Origin: Bacteroidota bacterium
GTDB taxonomy: Bacteria; Bacteroidota; Bacteroidia; Flavobacteriales; Flavobacteriaceae
NCBI GenBank assembly: GCA_051748125.1
Contig: JBNJHC010000008.1
Coordinates: forward strand, 43,975-107,974
Reading direction: 5' to 3'
Length of the DNA stretch: 64,000 bases
Shown: positions 10,981 to 53,854 of the stretch, piece after piece
Position numbering within the stretch: the first letter of the stretch is position 1
Layout: every line of letters begins with the position of its first letter
Position numbers and translations under genes: made by a program
Notes under the pieces: generated by a model
Database searches by the model: none
What the model was told of the DNA's origin: nothing
Seen by the model: the letters and a program-made list of their open reading frames with translations, nothing else

Positions 10981-11781
10981 ATGAAAAAATCCGCTTTAGC
11001 GTTGTTTATATTGACTTTACTATTCATGTCTTCATGTATAGGTCCTAAGAAATTGATTTACCTTCAGCAAGATGAAGATAGTGAAGCTGCTCAAGATTCG
11101 CTATTAACGCTGCAAGAAGTACAAAAACCTTACCGCGTTCAAGTCAATGATATTTTGAGTATTCGGGTAAAGGCAATCGATCAGGAATTGGTTGGGATGT
11201 TTAACCCGATAGACGATTCTAATGCCGATGCCACTACCGAAGAAAAAGCTTATTTCGACGGTTACCGCATCGATAGGCGAGGGGAAATCCGCATTCCAAC
11301 GATGGGGAAGCTCAAAGTGGTGGGAATGACACTTGAAGAAATAGAAACCCTTATTGAAAAGGAGTTGCTAGAGAGTTATTTCACCGAAAAAGCCAACTTG
11401 TTTGTTACCGTCAAATTGCCGGGTATTCGCTATACCACAATGGGTGAAATTGGTTCGCCTGGCGGACAAGTGGTTTATAAACAGCAAGTAAGCATAATGG
11501 AAGCCTTGGCAAATTCGGGTGATATTTTAATGACAGGCGATCGAAAAAATGTAAAGATATTGCGACAATATCCTGAGGGAAAACGAATTCACCACATCGA
11601 CTTAACGTCTATAGATGCAGTCAATTCGCCTTATTATTACATTCAACCAAACGATTTGATTTTGGTTAATCCGTTGCCACAAAAATCCTACGGAATCGGT
11701 ACCGATGGATTTGGAACATTAGCAACGGTACTCGGATTAGTTTCTACGGTAGCAATATTAATTTGGAGATTTAATAGGTAA
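10981..11781 (+). CDS. wza: Polysaccharide export outer-membrane protein (Wza family)
   Basis: Lipoprotein-type signal (LLFMSSCIG), Poly_export-like PYRVQVNDILSIRV, and an SLBB-like segment. The stop overlaps the wzc start. Confidence 0.85.
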   Translation: MKKSALALFILTLLFMSSCIGPKKLIYLQQDEDSEAAQDSLLTLQEVQKPYRVQVNDILSIRVKAIDQELVGMFNPIDDSNADATTEEKAYFDGYRIDRRGEIRIPTMGKLKVVGMTLEEIETLIEKELLESYFTEKANLFVTVKLPGIRYTTMGEIGSPGGQVVYKQQVSIMEALANSGDILMTGDRKNVKILRQYPEGKRIHHIDLTSIDAVNSPYYYIQPNDLILVNPLPQKSYGIGTDGFGTLATVLGLVSTVAILIWRFNR

Positions 11782-14240
11782 TGCAAGACGAAGAATTTAG
11801 CATAGATGAATCAACTGTCAATTTCGATTTTAAAGGATTTCTCTTTAAAATACTAAGTTATTGGTGGCTGTTTTTAATCAGTATCATTATAGGTTTAGGC
11901 GTTGCTTATTACATTAGTGTCCGAAAATTACCCGTATATCAACTTTCGAGTTTAATTGCGGTTAAAGATAATTCTAATCCTTTATTCACTTCCAATACTA
12001 GCCTAACTTTCAATTGGGGCGGCACTTCCAGTAAAGTCAATTCCACAGTTGTAACCTTACAAACCCGTACACACAACGAAAAGGTCGTCAAGGAATTAGA
12101 GTTTTACATCAATTACTTAAGGCAAGGCGAGTATCAGATTGAAGATGCCTACGGAAAAGTTCCTTTTGAAGTTCAATTAGATTCTTCTGCACTACAATTG
12201 CTTAACCAGCAATTTAAAATTCGGTTTGTGGACGAAAACAGCTTCGAATTAATTTTTGAAACGGAAGAAGCATTTGGCGGAAAGCTTTATAATTATTACA
12301 CCGAAGATGAAGTTCAAACCCATTTTATCGCTCAGGATTTTATTAAGGAATACAAATTTGGCGAAAAAATTGAAACGCCATTTTTCAACGGAATTATTAA
12401 TCGTTCTAATATTCCTGTTCAGCCTGGAAGCGAATATTTCTTTAGTTTTAGTCATTTGAATTCCGTCGTCAGCACCTACCAAAATATAATGGTCAATGCT
12501 GAAAAAGACAAAGGTTCTATTTTAAATTTGACCTTGCGTGGACAGAACAAAAAGCGCATTGTAGATTACCTCAATACCACCGTTGAAGTCTTGAGTCAAG
12601 ATATGTTGGATCGTAAAAATTTATTTGCTACGAAAACCATCAATTTTATCGATTCGATGTTAGTCGATCGTGCGCGTGATTTACGCGAAGTTCAAGATGA
12701 ACTAGACAGCTTTAAAACCGAACGGAATGTATTTGATTTAGATGCCGAAAGCGAGCAATACCGTACACGATTACTAGAACTTGATAAAGAAGAACGCGAA
12801 GTTCAAAAAAGCTTAAATTATTACGAAATATTAGAAGAGTATTTGCGTACCAGAAACGATTATTCAGATGTTCCTGCTCCTTCCGTTTCTGGAATTACCG
12901 AACCGAGTATTTCGAGTGCGGTCAATAAAATTATAGAACTTTCTGAGCAACGAAGCTCGTATCGTTATTCAGCAAAACCAGAAGCGCCTGTTATTTTTGA
13001 TGATATCGACCGTCAAATCGATGCAACCAAATCGGTTTTACTCGAAAATATCGAGTCTTCTCAAAAGTTATTGCAGCGTGAACTCAACAACATAAAAGCT
13101 GATATTTTTGAAATTGAAAACAAAGTCAGAGAACTGCCACAAGATCAGCAAGATTTACTAAAAATCGAGCGTCGCTATGAGCTTTCACAAGAAACCTATA
13201 ACCTGTTTTTATCCAAGAAAAATGAGGCGGGATTAATTCGTGCTGCTAATGTTTCAGATGTTATTGTAATCGATGAAGCCAAAGATGTTGGCAGCGGAAA
13301 AATCGGTCCTAACAATCAATTGAATTACGTTATGGCATTGTTGATTGGCGGTTTTGTGCCGTTGATATTTGTGTTTTTGTTAGTCATGCTCGACAACAAA
13401 GTCAACAACCCTAAAGACTTACTCAAAAACAGCCAAATCCCGATGCTTGGAGTCATTGGCAAAAGTTCTATTAAGGGGAATTTAGCGGTGCTAAAAAAAC
13501 CTAGAGGAGCTGTAGCTGAAAGTTTTCGAGCGATAAGAACCAGTTTGAAATTTACGTTTAAACAAAAAGAAGACAACAGCTCTAAAGTGTTGATGAGTAC
13601 TTCGTCCATTTCTGGGGAAGGAAAAACCTTTACGGCTATCAACTTGGCTTCGGTGTTTTCGTTAAGCGGAAAGAAAACAGTTTTAGTGGGATTAGATTTG
13701 CGTAAACCTAAGATTTTTGATGATTTTGGAATCAATAACAAACTCGGTGTTGTTAATTATTTAATCGGTCATAATAGCCTAGATGAAGTTACCCAGTTTT
13801 CGGGTTATGATAATTTAGACCTTATTACTTCTGGTCCTGTACCACCTAATCCATCCGAATTATTAATGGATGATCGAATGGATGAATTGATGACTTCGTT
13901 AAAAGAAAAATACGATTATATCATTTTAGATACGCCGCCAATAGGATTGGTTTCAGACGCTTTAAACCTCGTAAAACACGTTGATGCCACATTGTATTTG
14001 GTTAGACAGAACTACACCAAAAAAGCCATGCTAAATGTGATTAATGATAAGTATCATTCTGGCGAAATAAAAAACATAAGTTTCTTGTTGAATTACTTCG
14101 AGCAAAAAGCGAAATATGGCTATGGTTACGGATATGGCTACGGCTATGGTTACGGCTACGGCTATGGAAAATATGGCGATGCTTACCTCAAACGCGATAA
14201 AAAACGCAGTTGGATCAGGCGAATTCTTACAGGGAAGTGA
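11781..14240 (+). CDS. wzc: Chain-length determinant / tyrosine autokinase (Wzc/GumC-like)
   Basis: 819 aa. Two TM segments flank a long coiled periplasmic region. C-terminal P-loop ATPase (STSSISGEGKTFTA, ILDTPP) and a Tyr-rich tail (YG repeat). Confidence 0.85.
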   Translation: MQDEEFSIDESTVNFDFKGFLFKILSYWWLFLISIIIGLGVAYYISVRKLPVYQLSSLIAVKDNSNPLFTSNTSLTFNWGGTSSKVNSTVVTLQTRTHNEKVVKELEFYINYLRQGEYQIEDAYGKVPFEVQLDSSALQLLNQQFKIRFVDENSFELIFETEEAFGGKLYNYYTEDEVQTHFIAQDFIKEYKFGEKIETPFFNGIINRSNIPVQPGSEYFFSFSHLNSVVSTYQNIMVNAEKDKGSILNLTLRGQNKKRIVDYLNTTVEVLSQDMLDRKNLFATKTINFIDSMLVDRARDLREVQDELDSFKTERNVFDLDAESEQYRTRLLELDKEEREVQKSLNYYEILEEYLRTRNDYSDVPAPSVSGITEPSISSAVNKIIELSEQRSSYRYSAKPEAPVIFDDIDRQIDATKSVLLENIESSQKLLQRELNNIKADIFEIENKVRELPQDQQDLLKIERRYELSQETYNLFLSKKNEAGLIRAANVSDVIVIDEAKDVGSGKIGPNNQLNYVMALLIGGFVPLIFVFLLVMLDNKVNNPKDLLKNSQIPMLGVIGKSSIKGNLAVLKKPRGAVAESFRAIRTSLKFTFKQKEDNSSKVLMSTSSISGEGKTFTAINLASVFSLSGKKTVLVGLDLRKPKIFDDFGINNKLGVVNYLIGHNSLDEVTQFSGYDNLDLITSGPVPPNPSELLMDDRMDELMTSLKEKYDYIILDTPPIGLVSDALNLVKHVDATLYLVRQNYTKKAMLNVINDKYHSGEIKNISFLLNYFEQKAKYGYGYGYGYGYGYGYGYGKYGDAYLKRDKKRSWIRRILTGK

Positions 14241-14560: not shown

Positions 14561-14628
14561 ACTTAAAAAAATATTTTTAAAGTTCTTTTTTTGAGAACTA
14601 ATTGTATATTTGTATCATAATTTGGCTC

Positions 14629-14925
14629 ATGAAACGAATTATTGCGAAAAGTACGCTGAGAGAATTTTGGGAAAAACACGCTGATTCCGAACAGTATTTG
14701 AAAACTTGGTATGATACTGCTAAAAGTGCTAACTGGTTTTCTCCAAATGATGTAAAGCAGACTTATGTTTCAGTAAGTATTCTAAAAAATGGTCGAGTTG
14801 TTTTCAATATAAAAGGAAACTCTTATCGGCTTGTAGTTAAATTTAACTATGAAAAACAATGGGCGTTTATTCGATTTATTGGAACTCATCCTGAATATGA
14901 TAAAATAAACGCTGACACGATTTAA
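14629..14925 (+). CDS. higB: Type II toxin HigB-family mRNA interferase
   Basis: MKRIIAKSTLREFWEKH..NSYRLVVKFNYEKQWAFIRFIGTHPEYDKI matches the HigB_toxin pattern. ATG at 14629 preferred over the listed TTG. Confidence 0.8.
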   Translation: MKRIIAKSTLREFWEKHADSEQYLKTWYDTAKSANWFSPNDVKQTYVSVSILKNGRVVFNIKGNSYRLVVKFNYEKQWAFIRFIGTHPEYDKINADTI

Positions 14926-14937
14926 ACAAAATTGATT

Positions 14938-15312
14938 ATGGATTTAAGACCTATTAAAAACGAGAAAGACTACCGAAACGCACTTGAACGTTTGGAAGTG
15001 ATTTTTGATGCTCCAATTGATACAAAAGAAGGTGATGAAGCTGAAATTTTATCATTGATGATCGAAAATTATGAAAATGAACACTATCCAATCGAGTCAC
15101 CAGATCCAATCGAAGCGATAAAAATACGTATGGAAGAATTGAATTTGCGTCAAAAGGACTTAGTAGGGGTAATTGGCGGAAAGAGCCGAGTATCTGAAAT
15201 CTTAAATCGTAAAAAGAAGTTGACTGTTGAAATGATTAGAGAATTAGAACGCTTACTCCAAATTTCAGCTTCAGTTTTAGTCAATAACTATCAACTTGTT
15301 AAAAAACAATAA
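14938..15312 (+). CDS. higA: HigA-family antitoxin (HTH)
   Basis: Lies 12 bp downstream of higB. C-terminal HTH-like segment (LRQKDLVGVIGGKSRVSEILNRKKKLTVEMIRELERLL), typical of HigA partners. Confidence 0.75.
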   Translation: MDLRPIKNEKDYRNALERLEVIFDAPIDTKEGDEAEILSLMIENYENEHYPIESPDPIEAIKIRMEELNLRQKDLVGVIGGKSRVSEILNRKKKLTVEMIRELERLLQISASVLVNNYQLVKKQ

Positions 15313-17258: not shown

Positions 17259-17428
17259 ACTGTTTATAGACGTGTTTTGTAAGCGTTAAAATAATTAAGA
17301 AAATGCCCTTGTAATTTTTTCCATTTTCTGTATTAACTCCTATATTTGAGCTTTCAATAATGAATCATTTTCGCACAGTAAGCCAATCAAAAATGGGACT
17401 TGCTGCGGCGAAGCCGTGGAGAGTTTTG

Positions 17429-17640
17429 GTCGCTGACGCTCCCGTTGTGGGGTTCGCCTCGCTTCGCTTGCTCACTGTTATGGGGTTGCTATCGCAACTG
17501 TTTAGGCGATAGATTTGATTTCAAAATACGATTTAGGTACTAAGCATAACAAATTACAACAGCGAGCTTTGCGAGCACCACAACAGCAGATAAGCGCAGC
17601 GATATCTGCCCCACAACAGAAACCGAAGGTTTCCTACAAC
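17429..17640. repeat. Family X GC-rich palindromic element, copy 1 (short form)
   Basis: GTTGTGGGG/GTTATGGGG words on the left and CCACAACAG/CCCCACAACAG on the right, around a conserved AT-rich centre (gcgatagatttgatttcaaaatacgatttaggtac). Confidence 0.85.
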
Positions 17641-17706
17641 ACTTTTTGAAGTTAAGCCAAATTGTATAAAACAGATTAAAGTTGTATTTTTACTAAAAAT
17701 CAAGTT

Positions 17707-17934
17707 ATGAAAAGGGATGTGCTTATTAGTCAAACAATAAAAAAAATCAAGCAATTACCTGATTACAGACTAAAAGAAGTCAATAGTTATGTTGATTTTT
17801 TATTGAGTAAAATTGATGATCAGATTCTGTTAGAGAATATTAAAGATTTGTCAATGCAATCAGATTCATTTGATTTTTTAAATGATGATGAAGAATTATA
17901 TGAGGTTTCTGATGTTAAGGAACATTACCAATGA
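17707..17934 (+). CDS. Putative antitoxin of the adjacent PemK/MazF toxin
   Basis: 75-aa ORF overlapping the toxin start by 4 nt. Small acidic C-terminus. Assignment rests on position only. Confidence 0.6.
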   Translation: MKRDVLISQTIKKIKQLPDYRLKEVNSYVDFLLSKIDDQILLENIKDLSMQSDSFDFLNDDEELYEVSDVKEHYQ

Positions 17935-18260
17935 GAAAAGGAGACATTGTTTTAATTCCATTTCCTTTTTCTGATTTGACAGGAACAAAAAAACGACCAG
18001 CTGTAATTTTACTTAATGCTGCTGATGATGTGGTGTTATGTTTTATCACTTCACAGTTAAAATGGAAATCTGAATATGATTTAACACTCATGCCATCTGA
18101 AAAAAATGGTATTAAAAAAGAATCTATCATTCGCATAACGAAGTTGGTAACTTTAAGCAAAGATCTTGTTATTGGTAAACTAGGAGAGCTTGACCAAGAA
18201 GAAACTCTTCTTTTAAATAAAAATATAATAAGAGCTTTTAGGCTAAATAACAGCGAGTAA
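17931..18260 (+). CDS. mazF: PemK/MazF-family type II toxin
   Basis: MRKGDIVLIPFPFSDLTGTKKRPAVIL is the hallmark MazF/PemK N-terminus. 109 aa. Confidence 0.85.
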   Translation: MRKGDIVLIPFPFSDLTGTKKRPAVILLNAADDVVLCFITSQLKWKSEYDLTLMPSEKNGIKKESIIRITKLVTLSKDLVIGKLGELDQEETLLLNKNIIRAFRLNNSE

Positions 18261-18552
18261 TGTTGTTAGGTCGCTGGTGCTCTCGTTGTGGGGTTCGCCT
18301 CGCTTCGCTTGCTCACTGTTGTGGGGTCGCTGGCGCTCCTGTTGTGTTGCGCCTTTCGGCGCGTTGTGGGTTGCTATCGCAACTGTTTAGGCGATAGATT
18401 TGATTTCAAAATACGGATTTTAGGTACAGAGCATAACAAATAACAACAGCGAGCTTTGCGAGCACCATAACAGGCAACTTGTTGCCGCCACAACAGCAGA
18501 TAAGCGCAGCGATATCTGCCCCACAACAGAAACCGAAGGTTTCCCACAACAC
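18261..18552. repeat. Family X GC-rich palindromic element, copy 2 (long form)
   Basis: About five GTTGTGG-type words with 13-23 nt spacers, the same AT-rich centre, then about five CCACAAC-type words. Spacers are mini-hairpins (gcgcc-tttc-ggcgc, ggcaac-tt-gttgcc, gcagata..tatctgc, gaaacc-gaa-ggtttc). Confidence 0.9.
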
Positions 18553-18653
18553 TTTTTGAAGTTAAGCCAAATTACATAAAACAGATTAAAGTTATATTTC
18601 TACTAAAAATCAAATTATGAAAAGGGATGCTTCAAGAATTTATGGACTAATCA

Positions 18654-20021
18654 ATGAATAAAAAAACATTAGAGCATATCATCAATACTGGTGAAACAAC
18701 AACTGTTGAGTTTAAAACAAACTTTAACAATGAAGTTGTTGAAACATTAGTAGCATTTGCAAATGCGCAAGGCGGTAAGGTGTTGATTGGGATATCAAAT
18801 GACAAAAATGTTGTTGGGGTTTCATTACAAGAAGAATCTGTTCAAAACTGGATAAATGAGATTAAACAAAAAACAGCGCCAAGCCTTATACCTGATGCAG
18901 ATGTTTTGGAAATAGCGTTTAAAAAAGTATTGGTTTTTACCATAAAAGAATACCCTATTAAACCTGTTTCATTTAGAGGGAGATATTACAAACGTATGGC
19001 AAACGCTAATCATTTATTAAGTGTAGAAGAAGTTGTTAATATGCACTTGCAAACTATCAATTCTAGCTGGGATTACCACACCAATAATTACTCTAAAATA
19101 GATGATATTTCTTTTGAAAAAGTACAATCAGCCATCGAAGTTATAAACAAAAATGGAACAATCATAAATGAAGATCCTATTAATTTTTTGTTTAAGAAAG
19201 ATCTTATAAAAAATGAAAAACTCACCAATGCAGCTTTTTTACTTTTTACAAAAAAGGATACAGTTATCACTACTGTAGAACTGGGACGTTTTCAAACCTC
19301 CATCATTATAAAAGATAACGACCGCTCACAAACAGACTTGATTGCTCAAGTCAATCAAATTATCGGTTTTGTAGAGAAACATATCAATAAAGCTATTATT
19401 ATTACGGGCAAAGCACAGCATACCCAAGAGTGGCAGTACCCTATGGAAGCCATAAGAGAAATAGTTTTGAATATGGTAGTGCACAGGGATTATCGAGATA
19501 CAGCAGATTCTATTGTCAAAATTTTTGACGACTATATAGAGTTTTTTAACCCTGGTAGGTTGCCCGAAAACATAAGCGAAAAAGATTTAATAGAAAACAC
19601 TTATACATCGACGCCTCGAAATAAGTTAATTGCCGATATATTTAGAAGTATGGGGCTTATAGAAAAATATGGTTCTGGTATAAGGCGTATTATTAATTAT
19701 TGTACTGAAGCGGGATTACCAAAGCCTACTTTTCAAAACCAAGGGAATGGTTTTTTAGTAAGGGTATATGGAAAAAAGGCAGAAAATGTCGTAGAAAATG
19801 TCGTAGAAAATGTCGCAGAAAATGTCGCAGAAAATGAAAAAAAGATATTAAGGCTTATAGATAATAATTCTAAATATTCTGCTAAGCAAATGTCAAAACT
19901 ACTTGGTCTTACACAAAGAACTGTGCAAAGATACCTCAAGGAACTGCAAACTAAAAATATAATAGAAAGAATCGGTCCCGCTAAAGGTGGTTATTGGCAT
20001 ATTAACAAAAATAATGACTAA
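18654..20021 (+). CDS. AlbA_2 (Schlafen-like) DNA-binding plus HATPase_c_4-type ATP-binding protein with a C-terminal wHTH
   Basis: N-terminus GETTTVEFKTNFNNEVVETLVAFANAQGGKVLIG is the AlbA_2/divergent-AAA signature. The C-terminal ..LGLTQRTVQRYLKELQ is HTH-like. Confidence 0.75.
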   Translation: MNKKTLEHIINTGETTTVEFKTNFNNEVVETLVAFANAQGGKVLIGISNDKNVVGVSLQEESVQNWINEIKQKTAPSLIPDADVLEIAFKKVLVFTIKEYPIKPVSFRGRYYKRMANANHLLSVEEVVNMHLQTINSSWDYHTNNYSKIDDISFEKVQSAIEVINKNGTIINEDPINFLFKKDLIKNEKLTNAAFLLFTKKDTVITTVELGRFQTSIIIKDNDRSQTDLIAQVNQIIGFVEKHINKAIIITGKAQHTQEWQYPMEAIREIVLNMVVHRDYRDTADSIVKIFDDYIEFFNPGRLPENISEKDLIENTYTSTPRNKLIADIFRSMGLIEKYGSGIRRIINYCTEAGLPKPTFQNQGNGFLVRVYGKKAENVVENVVENVAENVAENEKKILRLIDNNSKYSAKQMSKLLGLTQRTVQRYLKELQTKNIIERIGPAKGGYWHINKNND

Positions 20022-20050
20022 CCGTATAAACAAATTAAAACACTTAGAAA

Positions 20051-20332
20051 GTTGTGATGTTCGCCTCGCTTCGCTTGCTCACTGTTGTGGGGTCGCTGAC
20101 GCTCCTGTTGTGTTGCGCCTTTCGGCGCGTTGTGGGGTTGCTGTCGCAACTGTTTAGGCGATAGATTTGAATTCAAAATACGATTTTAGGTACAGAGCAT
20201 AACAAATAACAACAGCGAGCTTTGCGAGCACCACAACAGCAGATAAGCGTAGCGATATCTGCCCCACAACAGAAACCAAAGGTTTCCCCACAACAGGGAG
20301 GGAGCGCAAGCAACCCGACCACCACAACAATA
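20051..20332. repeat. Family X GC-rich palindromic element, copy 3
   Basis: Same word/spacer architecture and centre as copies 1-2. Ends 14 bp before the wzm ATG. Confidence 0.9.
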
Positions 20333-20345
20333 AGATAACACACAA

Positions 20346-21209
20346 ATGAATAAATCACAATCCAAGGACTGGCTTTACGAAATCAATTCAGAAAAAAGCT
20401 TATTCGATTTTAATTTTAAGGAAATATGGCGGTACAAAGACCTCTTGTTTCTCTTTGTAAAACGCGATATTGTTACGGTTTATAAACAGACTGTTTTAGG
20501 ACCGCTTTGGTTTTTGATTCAACCGTTATTTACTTCGGTTATTTTTACACTTGTGTTTAATAATGTAGCCAGTATTCAGACAGGTACGGTTCCTAATTTT
20601 TTGTTCAACTTAGCGGGAATTACCGCTTGGACGTACTTTAAAGAATGCCTAACTGGAACTTCCAATACCTTTACAAAAAATGCGGGAATCTTTGGTAAAG
20701 TCTATTTTCCGAGAGTAATTATGCCAATGTCGATTACCGTCTCTAACCTGTTGAAACTCGGTATTCAACTGAGTATTTTTACGGGTTTTTATATCTTTTA
20801 TGTCGCTACAGGAAGTAGCGCTTCACCTAATTTTCATTTAGTGCTTTTTCCTGTTTATGTGTTTATGATGGGAATGACAGGTTTAGGACTGGGAATGATT
20901 CTTTCAGCTATGACCACTAAATACCGCGATTTAACAGTACTTATTGGTTTTGGTGTGCAGTTATTGATGTATATATCAGCAGTACCTTTTCCGATGAGTG
21001 AAATTTTAGAACGCAAACCCGAATTTTTCTGGGTGTTTAAATACAATCCGTTAGCTCAAATTATAGAAGGATTTCGTTACATGACACTAGATACTGGCTT
21101 ATTTACATGGGGCGGATTTTTCTATGCGCTGGTATTTTCTATCGTCGTATTTTTTATCGGATTAGGAATTTTTAATCGAACAGAGAAGAGTTTTGTGGAT
21201 ACGGTTTAG
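20346..21209 (+). CDS. wzm: ABC-2 type polysaccharide/O-antigen exporter permease
   Basis: 287 aa, six hydrophobic segments, and the typical N-terminus (LFLFVKRDIVTVYKQTVLGPLWFLIQPL). Confidence 0.85.
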   Translation: MNKSQSKDWLYEINSEKSLFDFNFKEIWRYKDLLFLFVKRDIVTVYKQTVLGPLWFLIQPLFTSVIFTLVFNNVASIQTGTVPNFLFNLAGITAWTYFKECLTGTSNTFTKNAGIFGKVYFPRVIMPMSITVSNLLKLGIQLSIFTGFYIFYVATGSSASPNFHLVLFPVYVFMMGMTGLGLGMILSAMTTKYRDLTVLIGFGVQLLMYISAVPFPMSEILERKPEFFWVFKYNPLAQIIEGFRYMTLDTGLFTWGGFFYALVFSIVVFFIGLGIFNRTEKSFVDTV

Positions 21210-21210
21210 C

Positions 21211-21690
21211 GTAATGGAGGAATGGTGTAATGGAAGAATGGAGGAATAGAGGAATAGTGTAATGGAGGAATGGTATAATAGAGGAATAGTGTAATGGGGG
21301 AATAGTGTAATGGAAGAATGGTGTAATGGAAAAATGGTATAATAGAGGAATGGTGTAATGGGAGAATGGTGTAATAGAGGAATAGTGTAATGGGAGAATG
21401 GTGTAATGGAAGAATAGTGTAATGGAAGAATAGTGTAATGGAGGAATGGTATAATAGAGGAATAGTGTAATGGGAGAATGGTGTAATGGAAGAATAGTGT
21501 AATGGGAGAATAGTGTAATGGGAGAATAGTGTAATGGAAAAATGGTGTAATAGAGGAATGGTGTAATGGGAGAATAGTGTAATGGAGGAATGGTATAATA
21601 GAGGAATGGTGTAATGGGAGAATGGTGTAAAGGAAGAATAGAGTAGTAGTGTAATGGAATAATGGAGTAATTGAAGAATGGTAGTCAAGT
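21211..21690. repeat. Degenerate 8-bp (16-bp super-unit) tandem array, GAATGGTG/TAATGGAA type
   Basis: About 60 consecutive 8-bp units, pattern NAATRGNR, read directly. The reverse complement (CCATTACA/CCATTCTT) is related to the right-hand array. Confidence 0.95.
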
Positions 21691-21772
21691 AGTAGTTTAA
21701 TAGAAAGTTAGTGTATTAAATGTGTAGAAAAAACAAAAATAAACTTAATTGTATTAAGTATAATTTTATCTT

Positions 21773-21938
21773 ACCACTATACCACTATACCACTATACCA
21801 CTATACCACTATACCACTATACCACTATACCACTATACCACTATACCACTATACCACTATACCACTATACCACTACACCACTACACCACTATACCACTAT
21901 ACCACTACACCACTACACCACTACACCACTACACCACT
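21773..21938. repeat. 8-bp tandem array CCACTATA / CCACTACA (about 21 units)
   Basis: Near-perfect period-8 repeat. Ends 18 bp before the wzt ATG. Confidence 0.95.
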
Positions 21939-21956
21939 AATAACTGAAATAAACAA

Positions 21957-23228
21957 ATGAACAACATCATACTAAAAGCCGAAAACATCTCCAAACAATA
22001 CCGACTTGGCTTGGTAGGGACGGGGACGTTGAGTCACGATTTAAATCGTTGGTGGCATCAAATACGGGGGAAAGAAGACCCTTATTTAAAAATTGGTGCG
22101 GAGAACGACCGCAGTAAAAAAGCGGAAACCGATTACGTCTGGGCATTGCGGGATATTAACTTTGATGTCTATGATGGCGATGTACTGGGTATTATTGGAA
22201 AAAATGGCGCGGGTAAATCTACCTTGCTCAAAATTTTATCGCGGGTAACTACGCCGACTACAGGAAGCATTAAAACCAAAGGACGTATTGCTTCTTTACT
22301 AGAAGTAGGTACGGGCTTTCATCCTGAATTAACGGGTCGAGAAAATATTTACCTCAATGGCGCTATTTTGGGGATGACCAAAAGTGAAATTAAAGCCAAG
22401 GAAGAAGAAATAATAGATTTCTCAGGTTGTGCCATGTATATTGATACGCCCGTAAAACGCTATTCCTCAGGAATGCGGGTGCGATTAGCTTTTGCCGTTG
22501 CTGCCCATTTAGAACCCGATATTTTGGTGGTAGATGAAGTCCTAGCCGTAGGTGATGCCGAATTCCAAAAGAAAGCCATTGGCAAAATGAAAGATATTTC
22601 AGGTAACGATGGCAGAACGGTTTTGTTTGTGAGCCATAACATGGCAGCGGTGAAAAGCTTGTGTACACGAGGGATTGTGTTGGAGAATGGAACTTCTGTT
22701 TTTGAAGGGACAGCAGAGGAGTGTGTAAGTTATTATTTGAAAGATGGAAAATCTGAAGCTAATAATGAAAGAGTATTTAAAAATGTAGAAAAGAATGATG
22801 TTTTTAAGCTAAATTCAATTTCGGTTTCAAATGCAGGGAGAAGTTTTGGAGAGCCGATTGTAGAAGACGAGGAAGTTCATTTAAAAACTTCTGTTTACAT
22901 AGAAAAAGAACCAGAGCGCTATCATATTACTTATCATTTATATAACGAACTAGGAGAAGCTATGTTTAGTCTGTCTAACAGAAGGGCAGATGTAAATCTA
23001 GTTAATGGTGTAAATCATCTTGTCTGTAAATTTCCAAAAGGGTTTTTACAGCCAGGTAATTTTTCATTAAAATTTCTACTTGTGAAAGATAGAAAAAAAG
23101 CTATTTACATAGAAGACTCTATTGTTAGTTTTACAGTAGTAAATGCCGGTAGAGAACTTGGGGTTTATATGGGGAAAGAACCTGGTTTTATTATACCTAA
23201 TTTAGAATGGAAACAAGACAATAAATGA
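21957..23228 (+). CDS. wzt: Polysaccharide ABC exporter ATP-binding protein with a C-terminal extension
   Basis: Walker A GKNGAGKST, signature YSSGMRVRLAFA, Walker B ILVVDE. An extra C-terminal domain of about 170 aa, as in Wzt proteins with a glycan-terminus-binding module. Confidence 0.9.
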   Translation: MNNIILKAENISKQYRLGLVGTGTLSHDLNRWWHQIRGKEDPYLKIGAENDRSKKAETDYVWALRDINFDVYDGDVLGIIGKNGAGKSTLLKILSRVTTPTTGSIKTKGRIASLLEVGTGFHPELTGRENIYLNGAILGMTKSEIKAKEEEIIDFSGCAMYIDTPVKRYSSGMRVRLAFAVAAHLEPDILVVDEVLAVGDAEFQKKAIGKMKDISGNDGRTVLFVSHNMAAVKSLCTRGIVLENGTSVFEGTAEECVSYYLKDGKSEANNERVFKNVEKNDVFKLNSISVSNAGRSFGEPIVEDEEVHLKTSVYIEKEPERYHITYHLYNELGEAMFSLSNRRADVNLVNGVNHLVCKFPKGFLQPGNFSLKFLLVKDRKKAIYIEDSIVSFTVVNAGRELGVYMGKEPGFIIPNLEWKQDNK

Positions 23229-28403: not shown

Positions 28404-29537
28404 CTACTCACGCAACCTATAAAAATGCTCAACAATCGCCATCCATTCTTTGCGTTCCTTTGTTGCAGCACGTTGGTAGGTGTCCGTGGGATAGTCTAAC
28501 TGTAGCGAGTATTTATTCTTGCTTTTGTTGAACCATTGTCTAAATGCCACATCTTTTATCAAAATTGTTTCATCCTTTTCAGACATTTTACGGTATAAAA
28601 AAGAAAGCATTTTATGACTTGTAATTTGTTTTGCACAGGCATCAAAAAACAGAAAATCCTTAGCGTCTTTAAAGATATGCTTGGGATAATCAATTTCAGC
28701 AGTTTGCTTGGATTGTTTAGAAGTATTTTCAGCCGCTTGATGAGGTTGGGAGTTATCATTCAGTTGGAGGTAGGAATCAAATTCAGTACGGACTTCATCA
28801 AAAAGATGGTCTTCTTCCAAATCAAGGAAGTGTATAATTTCATTGATAAGATGTTCCATCCATCTTTTACAAACTTGGTGAAATTGAGCGGTTTCAGTTT
28901 CACTTAAAAGCGGTGGATGCAGTAAATGCTTTAAGTCGGTTCGATGTAGGCTAATTAAATCAGCAGGAATAGCATTTGAATTAAACTTAAAATTAGTTAA
29001 GGCATTAATAATAAGAGCAGTCAAAATGGAATTAGCTATTTTATCAAATAATTCTTTAACTTCAAGGAATGATACAATTTCTAGATTAAGTTCTTTTGAG
29101 GTCAAATATTCTTGAAAGGATATATCAGTATTGAGGTATGGAGGGATAGCTTTAATCAATTTCTCCAGTTTTTCAATGCAAGGTTTAAAAGATGAAATTT
29201 CTTTCAGATAGTCGTTAGTAAGGGCTGGTTTTTGCGTATTCATCAAAAAGTTATACTCAATTTTCCAATAATAGGAGAGTAAATATTTTTTTTGATTATT
29301 TGAAGTAATAGAGCAGCGATGAAGAGTATGTTCATTATATAAATCAAGCAACTCATTTTGGTCAATCTTTTTTTTGTAGTTGTTGTCATTAACAACACCT
29401 CCGTCAACATAAAATAGGTAAGCAATCATGTTTTTTACAAACTGTTGCGGAGCGGTAAGTTTACCAGCATTATAATCTTGAATTCTATAGGTAATGTCTT
29501 TTTCAAATGGATTGGTCGAGTATAAATCAAAATTCAT
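28404..29537 (-). CDS. Hypothetical protein (377 aa)
   Basis: Long uninterrupted ORF with no recognisable domain. Preceded on its own strand by an AT-rich stretch and six direct repeats. Confidence 0.55.
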   Translation of the reverse strand: MNFDLYSTNPFEKDITYRIQDYNAGKLTAPQQFVKNMIAYLFYVDGGVVNDNNYKKKIDQNELLDLYNEHTLHRCSITSNNQKKYLLSYYWKIEYNFLMNTQKPALTNDYLKEISSFKPCIEKLEKLIKAIPPYLNTDISFQEYLTSKELNLEIVSFLEVKELFDKIANSILTALIINALTNFKFNSNAIPADLISLHRTDLKHLLHPPLLSETETAQFHQVCKRWMEHLINEIIHFLDLEEDHLFDEVRTEFDSYLQLNDNSQPHQAAENTSKQSKQTAEIDYPKHIFKDAKDFLFFDACAKQITSHKMLSFLYRKMSEKDETILIKDVAFRQWFNKSKNKYSLQLDYPTDTYQRAATKERKEWMAIVEHFYRLRE

Positions 29538-29626
29538 TAATTATATTTTTATAAATTAGCGTGATAATTTACTATAAAAATATATTTTAACAAAATAAAA
29601 AACTAAAAATAACAGTATAGTTAATA

Positions 29627-29756
29627 AAAAAGTAAGCGAGCTTTAAAAAAAAGCAGCCGAGGTTTAGTAGAAAAGTAACCAAGGTTTTTGAAAAAAGTAG
29701 CCGAGCTTTTGCAGAAAAGCAAGCCAACTTTTTAGTAGAAGCAGCCGAGCTTTTTT
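29627..29756. repeat. Six tandem 20-24 bp iteron-like repeats (AAAAGYARCCRAGSTTTT)
   Basis: aaaagtaagcgagcttt / aaaagcagccgaggttt / aaaagtaaccaaggttttt / aaaagtagccgagctttt / aaaagcaagccaacttttt / aagcagccgagctttttt, read directly. Confidence 0.85.
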
Positions 29757-29795
29757 ACAGCAGGAGAGAAATATAAACTAGAAGCGCCTGTTAGG

Positions 29796-29850: not shown

Positions 29851-30267
29851 TTAGTCACTGTCAGGTCTTAAAATTTTAAAGTCTAGGGTATTCAGCGCCT
29901 TCTTAACATGTTTAGAAGGTCTATAATTGAGCCTAATACGTTTCAAGTTGCTGATATCAACATCTTCAGGTGTCTCACTCCCCGAAGAATTTACAGCCAC
30001 TTGAAAGCTACCAAGTTTACCCAATTCTACCACGCGACCTTGTCGCAGTTCGTCTAACATATTATGGACAAAGGCATGAAGAACCGCTAAACAGTCAGGT
30101 TCTCGCACCGTAGATTGATTGGATATGAGGTAAGCTAAATGCTCTAAATCTGAATTGCCATTTTTAATGGCTTGTAAGTAAAACTTTTCAGGCGCTTCTA
30201 TATTATTTGGGTTTATTTTCGCCTGAACTTTTAGTAAATTAACCCTATTATTAAAATTAGTAATCAT
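29851..30267 (-). CDS. Bacteroidetes-type HU-family DNA-binding protein
   Basis: 138 aa. ..LEHLAYLISNQSTVREPDCLAVLHAFVHNMLDELRQGRVVELGKLGSFQV.. matches the long HU-like proteins common in Bacteroidota. Confidence 0.7.
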   Translation of the reverse strand: MITNFNNRVNLLKVQAKINPNNIEAPEKFYLQAIKNGNSDLEHLAYLISNQSTVREPDCLAVLHAFVHNMLDELRQGRVVELGKLGSFQVAVNSSGSETPEDVDISNLKRIRLNYRPSKHVKKALNTLDFKILRPDSD

Positions 30268-31329: not shown

Positions 31330-31548
31330 ATGGATATTCAAACAACAAAACTTGAACTCTTAAAAACTATTATGGATAATGAAAACGCTGAATTTATCCA
31401 AAGAGTTGCTGATTTTGTTAAAAAGGAAAAAACTGACTTTTGGGACGAATTAAGCCTATCTGAACAAAAAGAAATTAAACAAGGAATAAGCGAATTGAAT
31501 GAAGGAAAAAGAGTATCGTATGAATCCTTTTTGAATAAAATTTCTTGA
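31330..31548 (+). CDS. Putative antitoxin of the ParE/RelE-like toxin
   Basis: 72 aa, overlaps the toxin start by 4 nt. Same family as 33251-33487 (shared ..SEQKEIKQGISELNEGKRVSYESF.. pattern). Confidence 0.6.
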   Translation: MDIQTTKLELLKTIMDNENAEFIQRVADFVKKEKTDFWDELSLSEQKEIKQGISELNEGKRVSYESFLNKIS

Positions 31549-31856
31549 TGAAAGTATTTTTATCTGAACTTGCCGAATCAAAACTTATTAAATTATCTGA
31601 GTACTTGTTAGAAAACTGGAACCTAAAAACTCGTGATAAGTTTATTTCAAAGTTGACTGATAAAATAAAACAAATATCTATTCAACCAAATAGTTGCCCA
31701 CAATCAACTGAATTTAATGGGTTTTATAAATGTGTAGTAACTAAACAAACTACTTTTTATTACAGAATATTAAATGAAGAAGATGAGATAGAGATTATCA
31801 CAATTTTTGACACTAGACAAAATCCTAACGAATTAAAAAAAGACATTGAATTTTGA
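31545..31856 (+). CDS. RelE/ParE-family type II toxin
   Basis: 103 aa with the family-typical C-terminal IEIITIFDTRQNP. Confidence 0.8.
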   Translation: MMKVFLSELAESKLIKLSEYLLENWNLKTRDKFISKLTDKIKQISIQPNSCPQSTEFNGFYKCVVTKQTTFYYRILNEEDEIEIITIFDTRQNPNELKKDIEF

Positions 31857-32087: not shown

Positions 32088-32528
32088 ATGAAAAAAGAAA
32101 AGTATAAATATTCTGCTGAGAAGGAATTGATGTATTTTGAGTTCTTTAGTGTTGGTCCAAAAGGAGAGATTAAAAAGGTTATTGAATTTTCAGAGACCAA
32201 CGTTAAAGATGTTTATAATCTTGCTTTTGGTGATTTTGACGAAAAAACACAGCGAATAAGTGACAGTGTTGTGACCAATAATGGCGATAGCTTAAAAGTA
32301 CTTGCAACAGTGGCATCTTCTGTTTATGCGTTTACAGCTGAACGAACTGACGCCTGGGTTTTTGCGACAGGAAGCACTGCTGTTAGAACAAGGTTATACC
32401 GTATGGGATTAACGAACAACCTGGCTGAGGTCTCTAAAGACTTTCACATATATGGTTTAAAGGACGATAAGTGGGAAGATTTCTTAATCGGGGAAGATTA
32501 CGAAGCTTTTTTAGTCAAACGAAAATAG
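32088..32528 (+). CDS. Conserved hypothetical protein (resembles Bacteroidota DUF6934-type proteins; name from memory)
   Basis: 146 aa. The pattern FFSVGPKGEIKKVIEF..YNLAFGD..NNGDSLKVLATVASSVYAF..GSTAVRTRLYRMG is recalled from many Bacteroidota hypotheticals. Confidence 0.6.
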   Translation: MKKEKYKYSAEKELMYFEFFSVGPKGEIKKVIEFSETNVKDVYNLAFGDFDEKTQRISDSVVTNNGDSLKVLATVASSVYAFTAERTDAWVFATGSTAVRTRLYRMGLTNNLAEVSKDFHIYGLKDDKWEDFLIGEDYEAFLVKRK

Positions 32529-33250: not shown

Positions 33251-33487
33251 ATGGATTCGACTGCACACATAAAAAAGAACCTGATTTCAAGAATTAAGAA
33301 TTCAAAAGATTTGGATTTTTTAAAAGCGCTTCAGCAAATATTGGACACTTCCGAACAGGAGCTGTACCAATTATCAACCGAACAAAAAGAAGCAATTTCA
33401 AAAGGTAGCGAGCAAATCAAGAAAGGTCAATTTTCTAGTAACGAATCCGTAATTTCTGAAATGAAAGAATGGCTGTCAAAAAAATAA
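33251..33487 (+). CDS. Putative antitoxin of the ParE/RelE-like toxin (second copy)
   Basis: 78 aa, paralogous in pattern to 31330-31548. Overlaps the downstream toxin ORF. Confidence 0.6.
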   Translation: MDSTAHIKKNLISRIKNSKDLDFLKALQQILDTSEQELYQLSTEQKEAISKGSEQIKKGQFSSNESVISEMKEWLSKK

Positions 33488-33771
33488 TATGGTCAGCTTT
33501 AGCCAAATCGGAGTTTCGTGATATTCTTGAATTTTATACACGCAGAAACCAATCAGCTACCTACAGTCTAAAGCTTTTAGAAGAAACAGAAGAGGTATTA
33601 ACTACGCTGTCAAAAAATGAATTTATTGGGCGATTAACATCAAATAAAAAAACGCGCGTACTACCAATGAAAGCCTATTTGATTTTCTACGAGATAAACG
33701 AAAAGACCATCGAGATAGTTTCATCTGGGATAACCGGCAAGATCATAAAAAACGTAGGATTAGATAAATAA
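33469..33771 (+). CDS. RelE/ParE-family toxin with a probable frameshift in the C-terminal motif
   Basis: After ..IEIV the listed frame reads SSGITGKIIKNVGLDK. The frame starting at 33720 reads FIWDNRQDHKKRRIR*, the expected family ending (WDxRQ). Confidence 0.65.
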   Translation: MAVKKIIWSALAKSEFRDILEFYTRRNQSATYSLKLLEETEEVLTTLSKNEFIGRLTSNKKTRVLPMKAYLIFYEINEKTIEIVSSGITGKIIKNVGLDK

Positions 33772-34030: not shown

Positions 34031-35026
34031 ATGAGCAAACTTAACAGGATAATGGATAAACGATTTGCTGATATAATTCGACTGATTAAAAAATCTAGGG
34101 TTAAGGCTATAAAATCAGTGAATGCTGAACTAATTAACCTGTATTGGAATATTGGAGAGTACATTAGTAATAAAATTGAACAGTCAGAATGGGGTGATTC
34201 GGTTGTAATGGAATTATCAAAATATATTCAGAAAACTGAACCTGAACTCAAAGGCTTCTCCGACAAAAATATTTGGAGAATGAAACAGTTTTACGATACT
34301 TACAAAGACTTTCCAAAACTCTCAACACTGTTGAGAGAAATTAGTTGGTCTCACAATTTAGCTATTTTCTCTAGGTGTAAAACTACAGAAGAAAGAGAGT
34401 TTTATTTGAAATTGGCTAAACAAGAAAATTACAGTTTCCGAGAACTTGATCGACAAATCTCTTCAAGTCTTTTTGAGCGGACAATGATTGGAAACTCAAA
34501 ACTCTCGACAGAGTTGAGAGAAAATAACAAAGATTTAATAAACACATTTAAGGATAGTTATGTTTTTGAGTTTCTGAATTTACCTGAACGTCATAGTGAA
34601 CACGATTTACAGTATGGTCTTATTGAGCAAATGAAAAATTTTATCCTTGAACTTGGCAAAGACTTTTTGTTTATTGGCGAGGAATATAAATTGCAAGTAG
34701 GGAATAGTGACTTTTTTATAGATTTGCTATTTTATCATCGCGGACTTCAGTGTTTGGTAGCTTTTGAGCTCAAAACAGACAAGTTTAAACCCGATCATTT
34801 AGGACAATTAAATTTCTATTTGGAAGCATTAGATAGAGACATAAAAAAGGCAAATGAAAATCCAAGTATCGGAATTTTATTATGTAAGGATAAAGATAGT
34901 GAAGTTGTTGAATATGCATTAAATAGAAGCCTTTCACCAACAATGGTTTCTGATTATAAAACACAACTTCCTGACAAAAAAATATTACAGAAGAAATTAC
35001 ACGAATTATTTGATAGTGATTTGTGA
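34031..35026 (+). CDS. DUF1016/YhcG-family PDDEXK nuclease-domain protein
   Basis: 331 aa. ..LINLYWNIGEYI.., ..SWSHNLAIF.., and the nuclease core DLLFYHRGLQCLVAFELKTDKFKPDHLGQLNFYL. Confidence 0.8.
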   Translation: MSKLNRIMDKRFADIIRLIKKSRVKAIKSVNAELINLYWNIGEYISNKIEQSEWGDSVVMELSKYIQKTEPELKGFSDKNIWRMKQFYDTYKDFPKLSTLLREISWSHNLAIFSRCKTTEEREFYLKLAKQENYSFRELDRQISSSLFERTMIGNSKLSTELRENNKDLINTFKDSYVFEFLNLPERHSEHDLQYGLIEQMKNFILELGKDFLFIGEEYKLQVGNSDFFIDLLFYHRGLQCLVAFELKTDKFKPDHLGQLNFYLEALDRDIKKANENPSIGILLCKDKDSEVVEYALNRSLSPTMVSDYKTQLPDKKILQKKLHELFDSDL

Positions 35027-35812
35027 TTTCGGATTTTGAAATAATAATTTTGAATTTTGAATTGTGAATTGTGAATTGTGAATTTTGAATTTTGAATTGT
35101 GAATTGTGAATTGTGAAATGAAAAATGTAAATGGTGATAGGCTTTAAGCAGTAGGCTGTAGGCTGAAATTGGTGAATGGTGATTTTGGATTTTGAATTGT
35201 GAAATTTGAATTGTGAATTGGAAAAGTCAAAAAATCAGTGACCAACATTCTCAGGGTAAACAATACTGTTTAGCTTCGAGCCTCTCAATTCTTCGAGATA
35301 AACTCAGTCGAGAAGTGGCTGGTTCTTGAAACCTCAATCAGCATTTCAAGCCCTTGAGCTAAATTAAGGTGAAAAGGTTGGGAGAGTTGAAATGATGATT
35401 TTGAATTGTGAATTTTGAATTGTGAATTGGAAAAGTCAAAAAATCAGTGACCAACATTCTCAGGGTAAACAATACTGTTTAGCTTCGAGCCTCTCAATTC
35501 TTCGAGATAAACTCAGTCGAGAAGTGGCTGGTTCTTGAAACCTCAATCAGCATTTCAAGCCCTTGAGCTAAATTAAGGTGAAAAGGTTGGGAGAGTTGAA
35601 ATAATAATTTTGAATTGTGAGATTTGAATTTTGAATTGTAAATGGTGATAGGCTGTAGGCTGAAATTGGTGAATGGTGATGTCGGATATCTGATTTAGAA
35701 ATGTAAAGTATCAAATTTGAAATAATAATTTTGAATTTTTAATTGTGAATTTTTAATTGTGAATTTTGAAATGATAATTGTAAAATTTGAAATGTGAAAC
35801 CTGAACTAAAAA
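35027..35812. repeat. Dense intergenic repeat block (7-bp word arrays plus a duplicated family A unit)
   Basis: GAATTKT period-7 arrays, GTAGGCT-type arrays at about 35135-35180 and 35645-35690, and family A cores at 35270-35317 and 35479-35526, exactly 209 bp apart. Confidence 0.9.
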
Positions 35813-45088: not shown

Positions 45089-45094
45089 TAATTT

Positions 45095-45190
45095 AGTCTT
45101 CAGTCTTCAGTCGTCAGTCGTCAGTTGTCTGTAGACAGTAGACTAAAGACCGAAGACAGTAGAAAGTAGACAGTAAACCAAAGACAGAAT
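45095..45190. repeat. Period-7 word array that switches strand sense (CAGTCKT x5, then CAGTAGA/CGAAGAC type)
   Basis: tagtctt cagtctt cagtcgt cagtcgt cagttgt | ctgtaga cagtaga ctaaaga ccgaaga cagtaga .. read directly. The two halves are partly self-complementary. Confidence 0.9.
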
Positions 45191-45211
45191 ATAATAGACC
45201 AAATAAAAAAA

Positions 45212-45556
45212 ATGGATTACAAGAAGTTGAATGTTTGGAAAGAATCAATTGAATTAGTTAAGCAGGTTTATGTAGTAACGGCAAATTTTCCAAAAGAAGA
45301 GAAATATGGATTGATAAGTCAATTAAGACGTGCATCTGTTTCAATTCCATCTAATATAGCTGAAGGTAATAGTCGGAGCTCAGACAGAGATTATAAAAGA
45401 TTTGTCGAAATAGCGTACGGTTCTGCATTAGAACTAGAAACTCAATTAATAATATCTGTTGAATTAAAGTTTATTGATGAAAATAATGAGATTTTTAGTC
45501 AACTAGAACAAGTCAAAAAACTTTTATCAGGGTTTATGAAATATCTCAAGAAATAA
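45212..45556 (+). CDS. Four-helix-bundle protein (23S rRNA intervening-sequence protein / Avd family, PF05635-like)
   Basis: MDYKKLNVWKESIELVKQVY..FPKEEKYGLISQLRRASVSIPSNIAEGNSR..A.GSALELETQL is the family signature. Confidence 0.85.
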   Translation: MDYKKLNVWKESIELVKQVYVVTANFPKEEKYGLISQLRRASVSIPSNIAEGNSRSSDRDYKRFVEIAYGSALELETQLIISVELKFIDENNEIFSQLEQVKKLLSGFMKYLKK

Positions 45557-45570
45557 GTTTAAAATTGATA

Positions 45571-45710
45571 GTCCACAGTCCACAGTCCACAGTTGACTGT
45601 CGACTGTAGACCGAAGACAATCGACCGAAGACAGAAGACAGAAGACAATAGACCGAAGACCGAAGACAGAAGACAATAGACAGTAGACAGTAGACAGAAG
45701 ACAGAAGACA
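45571..45710. repeat. Period-7 word array (20 units, GTCCACA then GWAGACA type)
   Basis: gtccaca x3, gttgact, gtcgact, gtagacc, gaagaca, atcgacc, gaagaca x3 .. Exactly 140 bp in register. Ends 7 bp before neuA. Confidence 0.95.
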
Positions 45711-45717
45711 CTAAATA

Positions 45718-53423: not shown

Positions 53424-53426
53424 ATA

Positions 53427-53497
53427 AGACAGTCCACAGTCGACAGTCGACAGTATACAGTGGACAGAAGACAGTATACAGTGGACAGAAGACAAAA
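53427..53497. repeat. Period-7 word array (GACAGTC/GACAGAA type)
   Basis: gacagtc cacagtc gacagtc gacagta tacagtg gacagaa gacagta tacagtg gacagaa, read directly. Confidence 0.9.
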
Positions 53498-53505
53498 GAG
53501 AGAAA

Positions 53506-53744: not shown

Positions 53745-53758
53745 GTTTAAAATTGATA

Positions 53759-53850: not shown

Positions 53851-53854
53851 AACC

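Follow-up and report, generated by a model that had tools for sequence, protein, structure and literature searches.

Anatomy of the wzm-wzt gap

A stretch of 64,000 nucleotides from a Flavobacteriaceae bacterium (assembly GCA_051748125.1, contig JBNJHC010000008.1, positions 43,975 to 107,974), hereafter called the window, has 34% G+C and carries a long polysaccharide locus that lies nearly entirely on the + strand. Two genes of this locus, the ABC exporter permease gene wzm and its ATPase partner wzt, are 747 bp apart according to their open reading frames (ORFs) and Pfam matches. An earlier note, made from the sequence of the window, described this gap as two inverted tandem arrays with a spacer between them. 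The sequence and Tandem Repeats Finder (TRF) bear out that description. The gap is analyzed here together with a family of small cassettes in which arrays of this kind enclose a gene of Pfam family PF05635. Its components are as follows.

20346-21209, + strand: wzm (ABC-2 permease), an ORF matching PF01061 (E = 5.8e-16), with its TAG stop 1 nt before the left array
21211-21642, no strand: regular core of the left arm, GT/GA-rich, 27 units of 16 bp of the GTAATGGA-GGAATGGT type, no C on the + strand
21643-21690, no strand: degenerate tail of the left arm, from TRF and reading of the sequence
21691-21771, no strand: AT-rich spacer, or 'loop', of 81 bp with 83% A+T, in the place of the PF05635 gene of related cassettes
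21772-21939, no strand: right arm, AC-rich, 21 units of YACCACTA, no G
21940-21956, + strand: A-rich leader of 17 nt, ATAACTGAAATAAACAA, running from the right arm to the wzt ATG
21957-23228, + strand: wzt (ABC ATPase), matching PF00005 and, weakly and below threshold, Wzt_C

The left array is reported by TRF at 21211-21639 with a period of 16, 26.8 copies, 82% matches and a score of 529, and a continuation is found at 21651-21681. It had been read as an array of 8-bp units. Such units exist as halves, RTAATRGR and RRAATRGT, but they are joined in a dimer and the true period is 16 bp. A further periodicity of roughly 150 bp is superimposed on this one. The right array (21772-21939, period 8, 21.0 copies, 98% matches, score 294) consists of 15 copies of TACCACTA and six of CACCACTA, and the length of so nearly perfect an array could be mis-assembled. 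The left arm is three times as long as the right (480 versus 168 bp) and contains a single C in its 480 nt. Both arrays are intergenic and consist of tandem units within the 5-11 nt range that extend far beyond the length expected by chance, as in the class of long simple sequence repeats (LSSRs).

Little else is found in the gap. The spacer is without an ORF, and tblastn searches of 21210-21956 with three intervening-sequence proteins return no PF05635 coding remnant at E <= 10. Two ORFs that cross the arrays, one of 160 aa on the minus strand and one of 75 aa on the plus strand, have no Pfam match and are repeat artefacts. Scans of the + strand of the gap find neither a sigma-70-like nor a terminator-like site, and the Bacteroidetes -7 motif TAnnTTTG was not found on that strand; to judge from these scans, transcription probably reads through from wzm into wzt. 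Rfam at gathering thresholds detects no rRNA in the window, where a tRNA is the sole match.

Sequence variation within the arrays is strongly biased. Compared with its column consensus, the left array has 45 transitions, nearly all of them G<->A, and four transversions. The right array has six transitions (T<->C) and none of the latter. The pooled count over 21211-21939 is 51 transitions to four transversions. This excess could come from mutation bias or from unit-to-unit conversion. It does not preserve pairing between the arms, as A at positions 6 and 14 of the left unit faces C.

Complementarity and predicted folding of the arms

In the best register, the left and right units form 11 Watson-Crick pairs and one G-U pair, so that 12 of 16 positions are paired. 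The '6 of 8' pairs per unit claimed earlier are therefore correct. The accompanying claim, that one unit differs from the reverse complement of the other by one base, holds for the GTAATGG half-unit against the minority right variant CCACTACA and fails otherwise. Permuted units of the same composition equal the observed pairing in about 2% of trials (p about 0.02).

Each arm by itself is predicted to have almost no structure: 192 nt of the left arm fold to -0.1 kcal/mol, and the 168 nt of the right arm to 0.0 kcal/mol. Joining the arms gains -111 kcal/mol, compared to -85 +/- 5 kcal/mol for arm-wise shuffles and -68 +/- 14 kcal/mol for arrays rebuilt from permuted units, none of which (0/25) equals the native value. 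The pairing predicted by these models is real but loose. The gap thus has the complementary termini of an intervening sequence, though they pair imperfectly. An inverted pair looks alike from either strand, and the position of the G-rich array ahead of the other hence carries no information on the direction of transcription.

These predictions bear on two roles that had been proposed for the gap. Attenuation or processing of the transcript between permease and ATPase would draw on the pairing of the arms, which the controls support; the processing or attenuation itself stays an analogy. An unstructured leader for wzt is compatible with the structure-free right arm, which fits such a leader without proving it.

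The wzm-wzt junction in related genomes

The Wzt protein of the window is 87% identical to that of Psychroflexus tropicus and places the organism in the Flavobacteriaceae near Psychroflexus. An exact look-up of this protein finds it in none of the other contigs, and no second genome was found to have the array of the gap. In locus L087, whose Wzt is 75% identical, wzm and wzt are about 5 bp apart. This spacing is the uninterrupted state, and the gap in the window is therefore an insertion.

The three closest relatives, P. tropicus (L001) and two metagenomic loci (L003 and L004), encode Wzt proteins that are 84-87% identical to that of the window. Each has a gap of about 580-780 bp at wzm|wzt, and each gap contains a small PF05635 gene flanked by an inverted pair of 7-bp tandem arrays. 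The pair is TAGTGAA|TTCACGA in L001 and GGTTATC|AACCGAC in L003 and L004.

A scan of a genome collection with Wzt provides a Bacteroidota baseline of 80 loci among the matches listed, none of which is from Psychroflexus. Of 72 further loci among these matches, 43 (about 60%) have a wzm-wzt gap of at most 60 bp, and the gap exceeds 120 bp in 24. The statement that the two genes are normally adjacent accordingly describes the majority state, yet a majority of only this size. Many of the larger gaps hold inserted genes and short arrays.

Several observations at or near these junctions can be added. Two independent short-read assemblies of a relative (L085 and L086, Wzt 81% identical) break 50 bp upstream of wzt, just after a small hairpin, which suggests an unassemblable repeat at the wzm|wzt junction. 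In a Lewinellaceae metagenome-assembled genome (L067, gap with 53% G+C), an inverted pair at 1902-2023, consisting of four AAGGAATG units, a 55-bp spacer and four TCATTCCA units, directly follows wzm and precedes an inserted gene; a toxin-antitoxin-like pair lies before wzt. The GGAATG unit of L067 resembles the left half-unit of the window. Finally, 22 copies of AGTGAAT in P. tropicus (L001, 2670-2826) and 13 of AGTAGTG in a relative (L003, 589-678) directly follow the trpA stop. A TRF screen, in which the flanks were not read, finds no complementary partner array beside them.

PF05635 genes between complementary arrays

PF05635 is the family 23S_rRNA_IVP, or S23p, of Avd-like four-helix bundles. 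Twelve of its genes were read together with their surroundings: two in the window (at 45.2 and 53.5 kb) and those of L001, L003, L004, L071, L051, L080, L139, L140, L141 and L089. They come from Flavobacteriaceae, other Bacteroidota and one member of the Sericytochromatia, and Pfam confirms the family of the cassette genes. In all 12, a GT-rich array follows the upstream stop codon, and an AC-rich array complementary to it precedes the next start codon. In the simplest cassettes the PF05635 gene occupies the 'loop' between the arms. The two cassettes of the window and those at other loci that have not yet been described are listed here.

45089-45717, + strand: intact cassette with a PF05635 gene at 45212-45556 (Pfam E = 3.4e-38)
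53424-53854, + strand: decayed paralogous cassette with a PF05635 pseudogene at about 53506-53741 that has an internal deletion
L071, wzm|wzt: arms GGTGATGAA / CATCACTTC around a PF05635 gene
L051 and L080, rmlB|rmlA: arms of 8-bp units
L141, Wenyingzhuangia, hemL|hemE: arms GTTGGTA / CAACTAC
L140, Sericytochromatia, a different phylum: arms AAGTTAG / CTTCTAA
L139, Psychroflexus salarius: PF05635 cassette syntenic with that of the window

The gap at wzm|wzt has the spacing of these cassettes, with its left array 1 nt past the TAG and its right array 17 nt ahead of the ATG, and it is without the PF05635 gene. When intergenic arrays were collected by one TRF criterion over 815 kb, 14 of the 46 adjoined the eight PF05635 genes in that set. 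Support for the link from a duplex matrix of cognate and non-cognate arms, and from a ranking of the duplex energy between the 90 nt upstream and the 90 nt downstream of every gene, is only moderate, as the GC content of the loci and the length and position of the arms confound both measures. In the literature searched, no report was found that connects PF05635 genes outside rRNA with pairs of complementary arrays at operon junctions.

The units of the gap themselves also enclose a PF05635 gene in one contig. Scanning metagenomes for (YACCACTA)x4 gave 49 contigs, of which the majority resemble eukaryotic microsatellites. Three are bacterial and informative.

L089, between two co-directional genes: (GGTGTAGT)n, a PF05635 gene (117 aa, E = 1e-32), (CCATTACA)n
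L129, at an unrelated locus: TAATGGTG-type units followed, after a spacer of 37 bp, by TACCACTA units, without a gene between them
L124, between polA and an aminotransferase gene: a similar array pair

Reverse complementation turns the units of L089 into those of the right arm and the left half-unit of the window, and a duplex between its GT arm and the window's right arm is predicted at -131 kcal/mol. The same arm units therefore enclose a PF05635 gene elsewhere. L129 is a second gene-less copy. The modules of L089 and L129 are in the opposite orientation to that of the window.

Decay and array turnover within the window

Upstream of its gene, the intact cassette at 45 kb has an inverted pair of 7-mers, AGTCTTC|GAAGACA. 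The downstream pair, AGTCCAC|AGAAGAC, ends 7 nt before the next ATG. The same GACAGTN/AGAAGAC arrays flank the decayed cassette at 53 kb, and the paralogy of the two spans gene and arrays and ends at the outer edges of the arrays. The heptamers used are GACAGAA and GACAGTA. Three stages are thus present within one window: an intact cassette (45 kb), a decayed one (53 kb) and a gene-less one (21 kb).

The rate at which arrays change can be gauged from P. salarius, in which the locus is syntenic and the PF05635 protein is 97% identical to that of the window. At the DNA level, the gene and the pseudogene are 97-99% identical, yet the flanking arrays have indels of 7, 21 and 28 bp and many unit substitutions. 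The arrays therefore turn over much faster than the adjacent pseudogene, a pattern that, as far as sequence comparison goes, supports slippage or unequal exchange. Such processes would explain a 480-bp arm with a dimeric higher-order unit. They also give indirect support to the slipped-strand length variation that had been suggested for the gap, since sister arrays differ between close relatives and heptamer number varies in the intervening sequence of Coxiella (PMC4990558).

A probable insertion relic at an operon junction

The separation of wzm and wzt is probably an insertion relic and not a dedicated regulatory device, because its arrays belong to the PF05635 cassette family and the gene is present at the same junction in the nearest relatives. 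More specifically, we consider it reasonably probable that the gap is a gene-less, over-expanded relic of this family and the counterpart, in an mRNA operon, of 23S rRNA intervening sequences (IVSs). The PF05635 gene of the cassettes is probably selfish.

A full cassette consists of a GT-rich array after the upstream stop, a small PF05635 gene and, ahead of the next start codon, an AC-rich array complementary to the first, and would occupy a junction of co-transcribed genes. The two arms could pair, giving the insert the form of a stem-loop like that of a 23S rRNA IVS. At wzm|wzt, the arms and the 81-bp loop would be all that is retained. The arms may grow, shrink and diverge rapidly by slippage or unequal exchange, which would account for the long left arm with its 16-bp higher-order unit as well as for the near-perfect right arm. 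Read through within the wzm-wzt transcript, the module would form paired arms in the RNA, and these may be cut by RNase III, by analogy with the stems of rRNA IVSs. The G-free right arm and the 17 A-rich nucleotides behind it could keep wzt translatable. The module would then be tolerated rather than needed, and any effect of the gap on wzt expression is presumptive.

A number of observations weigh against this interpretation. The spacer contains no ORF remnant, and the arm pair may never have enclosed a gene that could be lost. The cassettes of the nearest relatives use different 7-bp units, so that a replacement or a separate insertion is required. Some junctions (L027 and L039) carry a GT-rich arm only. 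Homology between the spacers of the window and L129 was rejected, as 168 of 500 shuffles score as well; the apparent relationship between these two copies lies in their units alone. The common A variants of the left unit disrupt G-C pairs, the arms differ threefold in length, and RNase III cleavage is proposed by analogy only. The entire gap folds no better (-147 kcal/mol) than dinucleotide shuffles (-160 +/- 8 kcal/mol, z = +1.7). This control says little, since shuffled sequences blend the C-free arm with the G-free one, and arm-wise controls replaced it. In the 90-nt ranking, the median rank of PF05635 genes is 91 of 699, which is only moderately high, and three of them rank close to the median or under it. 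This outcome is due in part to arms that the 90-nt stretches miss and in part to the dominance of GC-rich loci in the raw energies.

The arrays could instead be satellites that were born in place by slippage in an existing spacer and are unrelated to PF05635, with a complementarity that arose by chance or by hairpin-templated strand switching and serves no role in RNA. The complementarity of the units is only modestly past chance, and the periodicities and 45:4 transition bias of the left array resemble ordinary satellite dynamics. Furthermore, many unrelated metagenomic contigs contain YACCACTA arrays, for the most part without a partner, and long 7-bp arrays without known function have been described in Flavobacteriaceae (PMC4679880). 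This origin is nonetheless unlikely given that both unit types enclose a PF05635 gene in L089 and are paired again in L129, that PF05635 cassettes fill the same junction in the closest relatives, and that intact and decayed cassettes are found in the same window. Mis-assembly, in which the arrays have been collapsed, expanded or made chimeric, could be suspected from the 168 near-identical base pairs of the right arm, which are longer than many short reads, and from the breaks in L085 and L086. It is exceedingly improbable, however, as the left arm is degenerate enough for unique assembly, the flanking genes are intact and in register, and independent assemblies of other organisms have the same architecture.

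Two further explanations assign the arrays a function. A host-beneficial element is conceivable in which the right arm is a leader for the Shine-Dalgarno-independent initiation of Bacteroidota, or a Rho-loading tract, and is masked by the left arm unless wzm is translated, thereby coupling wzt to wzm. Such a leader would profit from the lack of structure in the right arm. At many loci an AC-rich array stops 0-18 nt short of a start codon, C exceeds G in 13 of 22 start-proximal compared to 2 of 23 stop-proximal arrays, and a translational role has been proposed for heptamers just upstream of start codons (MacGregor 2015, PMC4679880). This explanation is quite unlikely when set against the strand symmetry of the G-rich and C-rich pair, whose polarity is no sign of a link to the direction of transcription, the opposite orientation of the L089 and L129 modules, the many wzm-wzt pairs (most of them) that do without such an element, and a left arm far longer than masking needs. 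The arrays might also be a contingency switch for phase variation, whereby unit number alters the pairing register or leader length and so switches or tunes wzt, and with it glycan export, within a population. Sister arrays do differ by whole units between close relatives, the unit of 8 bp is no multiple of 3, and the locus makes a surface polysaccharide, a usual target of such switches. We judge this very unlikely because the arrays extend from a stop codon toward a start codon and are neither in an ORF nor between promoter elements, where simple sequence repeats (SSRs) of contingency loci are found. No promoter-like site was found on the + strand of the gap, the short reading frames across the arrays match no family, and such arrays are also present at the housekeeping junctions hemL|hemE, rmlB|rmlA and polA.

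The insertion relic may be part of a larger pattern. It is possible, though doubtful at present, that PF05635 genes with complementary arms form one widespread class of selfish cassettes that colonizes transcribed junctions (rRNA helices in some bacteria and operon junctions in Bacteroidota and others) and is removed or neutralized at the RNA level by arm pairing, as an 'intervening sequence' of mRNAs. Many unexplained intergenic arrays of 7-8 bp in Bacteroidota, Cyanobacteria and Beggiatoaceae, including the wzm-wzt gap, would then be gene-less relics. In at least two phyla, genes of one family are enclosed at operon junctions by tandem arrays that are complementary, and this finding joins two puzzles. 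The origin and function of 23S rRNA IVSs and their S23p ORFs are unclear (PMC4990558), as are those of the long arrays of heptamers that Bacteroidetes, Cyanobacteria and sulfur bacteria carry (PMC4679880). On the practical side, such arrays interrupt short-read assemblies and spawn false ORFs, and annotators of polysaccharide loci should recognize them.

Other repeats and small genes of the polysaccharide locus

Additional repeats populate the locus. A module of about 300 bp is present in three copies (17360-17650, 18261-18560 and 20040-20345), each just upstream of a gene, with the last ending about 24 nt before the wzm ATG. Its left half has GTTGTGG(GG) repeats with small GC-rich hairpins, its right half has CCACAACAG repeats with hairpins, and the halves are complementary. 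These modules look like a second family of inverted arrays, without a PF05635 gene. A dispersed hairpin repeat containing CTGTTTAGCTTCGAGCCTCTCAATTCTTCGAGATAAACTCAGTCGAGAAGTG is located at about 14400, 15600, 30640, 30850, 31010, 31960, 33010, 35270 and 35480, and a 209-bp tandem of 2.2 copies at 35188-35642 is listed with it. This repeat usually resides inside AATTTTG/AATTGTG heptamer arrays, fills many junctions of the locus and yields spurious minus-strand ORFs that start with MRGSKLN... or MFQVRAESRTTD...

Small genes are found at junctions of the locus at 14602-15312, 17707-18260, 31330-31856, 32088-32528, 33251-33771 and 34031-35026. Four toxin-antitoxin pairs occupy such junctions (HigB with an HTH partner, DUF2281 with PemK/MazF, and two of ParE type), as do genes for a YhcG PD-(D/E)XK nuclease and for a DUF6934 protein. 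Repeat arrays flank all of them. The polysaccharide locus acts as a sink for small selfish genes.

Three shorter repeats were also recorded. About six copies of a 22-bp unit (AAAAGCAGCCGAGCTTTTT-like) at 29621-29757 lie between two minus-strand genes, downstream of 29851-30267 and upstream of 28404-29537, and could be a protein-binding array. Within an AlbA_2/HATPase_c_4/HTH gene (18654-20021), 4.8 in-frame copies of GCAGAAAATGTC at 19779-19836 encode ENVVENVAEN..., and eight in-frame copies of GGCTAC at 14114-14168 encode the YGYGYG tail of a Wzz/GNVR/AAA_31 protein (11781-14240).

Comparison with known systems

The closest parallel to the gap is provided by the IVSs in the 23S rRNA of Coxiella, Leptospira, Salmonella and other bacteria (Warrier et al. 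2016, PMC4990558), which are likewise complementary-ended inserts in a transcribed region. In the Coxiella IVS, terminal inverted repeats form a stem, an S23p ORF lies in the loop, and the insert is excised by RNase III; the element is regarded as selfish and its ORF as decaying (PMC4990558). Larger IVSs in general have an S23p/PF05635 ORF in the loop that is often decaying or absent, and the modules related to the gap are alike in this respect. Upstream of its ORF, the Coxiella IVS also carries tandem GACAGAT heptamers in numbers that vary among strains (PMC4990558). These are of the same heptamer type as the arrays of the window's cassettes at 45 and 53 kb. Unlike an IVS, the gap module is located between protein genes of a polysaccharide operon and not in helix 25 or 45 of 23S rRNA. 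Its stem would be made of two tandem arrays, 168 and 480 bp long, in which about 75% of positions pair, whereas the IVS stem is 28 bp and near-perfect. The copy in the gap is also without the ORF of larger IVSs, which is present in L089, L071, L051, L080, L140 and L141.

Viewed as simple sequence repeats, the gap arrays are similar to LSSRs, to TAACTGA arrays and to the short tandemly repeated repetitive (STRR) sequences of cyanobacteria, which are kindred repeats. All are intergenic tandem arrays of 7-8-bp units that often end just upstream of a start codon. Long heptamer arrays of unsettled role, often ending just before start codons, have been described in the Flavobacteriaceae Gramella and Aequorivita (PMC4679880), and TAACTGA arrays are known from Beggiatoaceae, Cyanobacteria and Bacteroidetes (MacGregor 2015, PMC4679880). 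The LSSR class is that of Mrazek 2007, as cited in PMC4679880. In contrast to LSSR and TAACTGA arrays, those of the gap come in complementary inverted pairs and are tied to PF05635, and neither point was found in the literature searched.

Repetitive extragenic palindromic (REP) sequences and the bacterial interspersed mosaic elements (BIMEs) are dispersed, transcribed palindromes at enterobacterial operon junctions that can form stem-loops in mRNA. They share with the gap the character of dispersed palindromic elements at operon junctions. REPs, however, are single palindromes of 35-40 bp linked to RAYT transposases rather than tandem arrays, and no RAYT gene was seen here. The SSRs of contingency loci in Haemophilus and Neisseria are likewise slippage-prone tandem units near genes for surface structures. 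The arrays between wzm and wzt differ from them in lying between a stop and a start codon with no promoter found, in comprising two complementary arrays, and in belonging to a module that is also found at housekeeping junctions.

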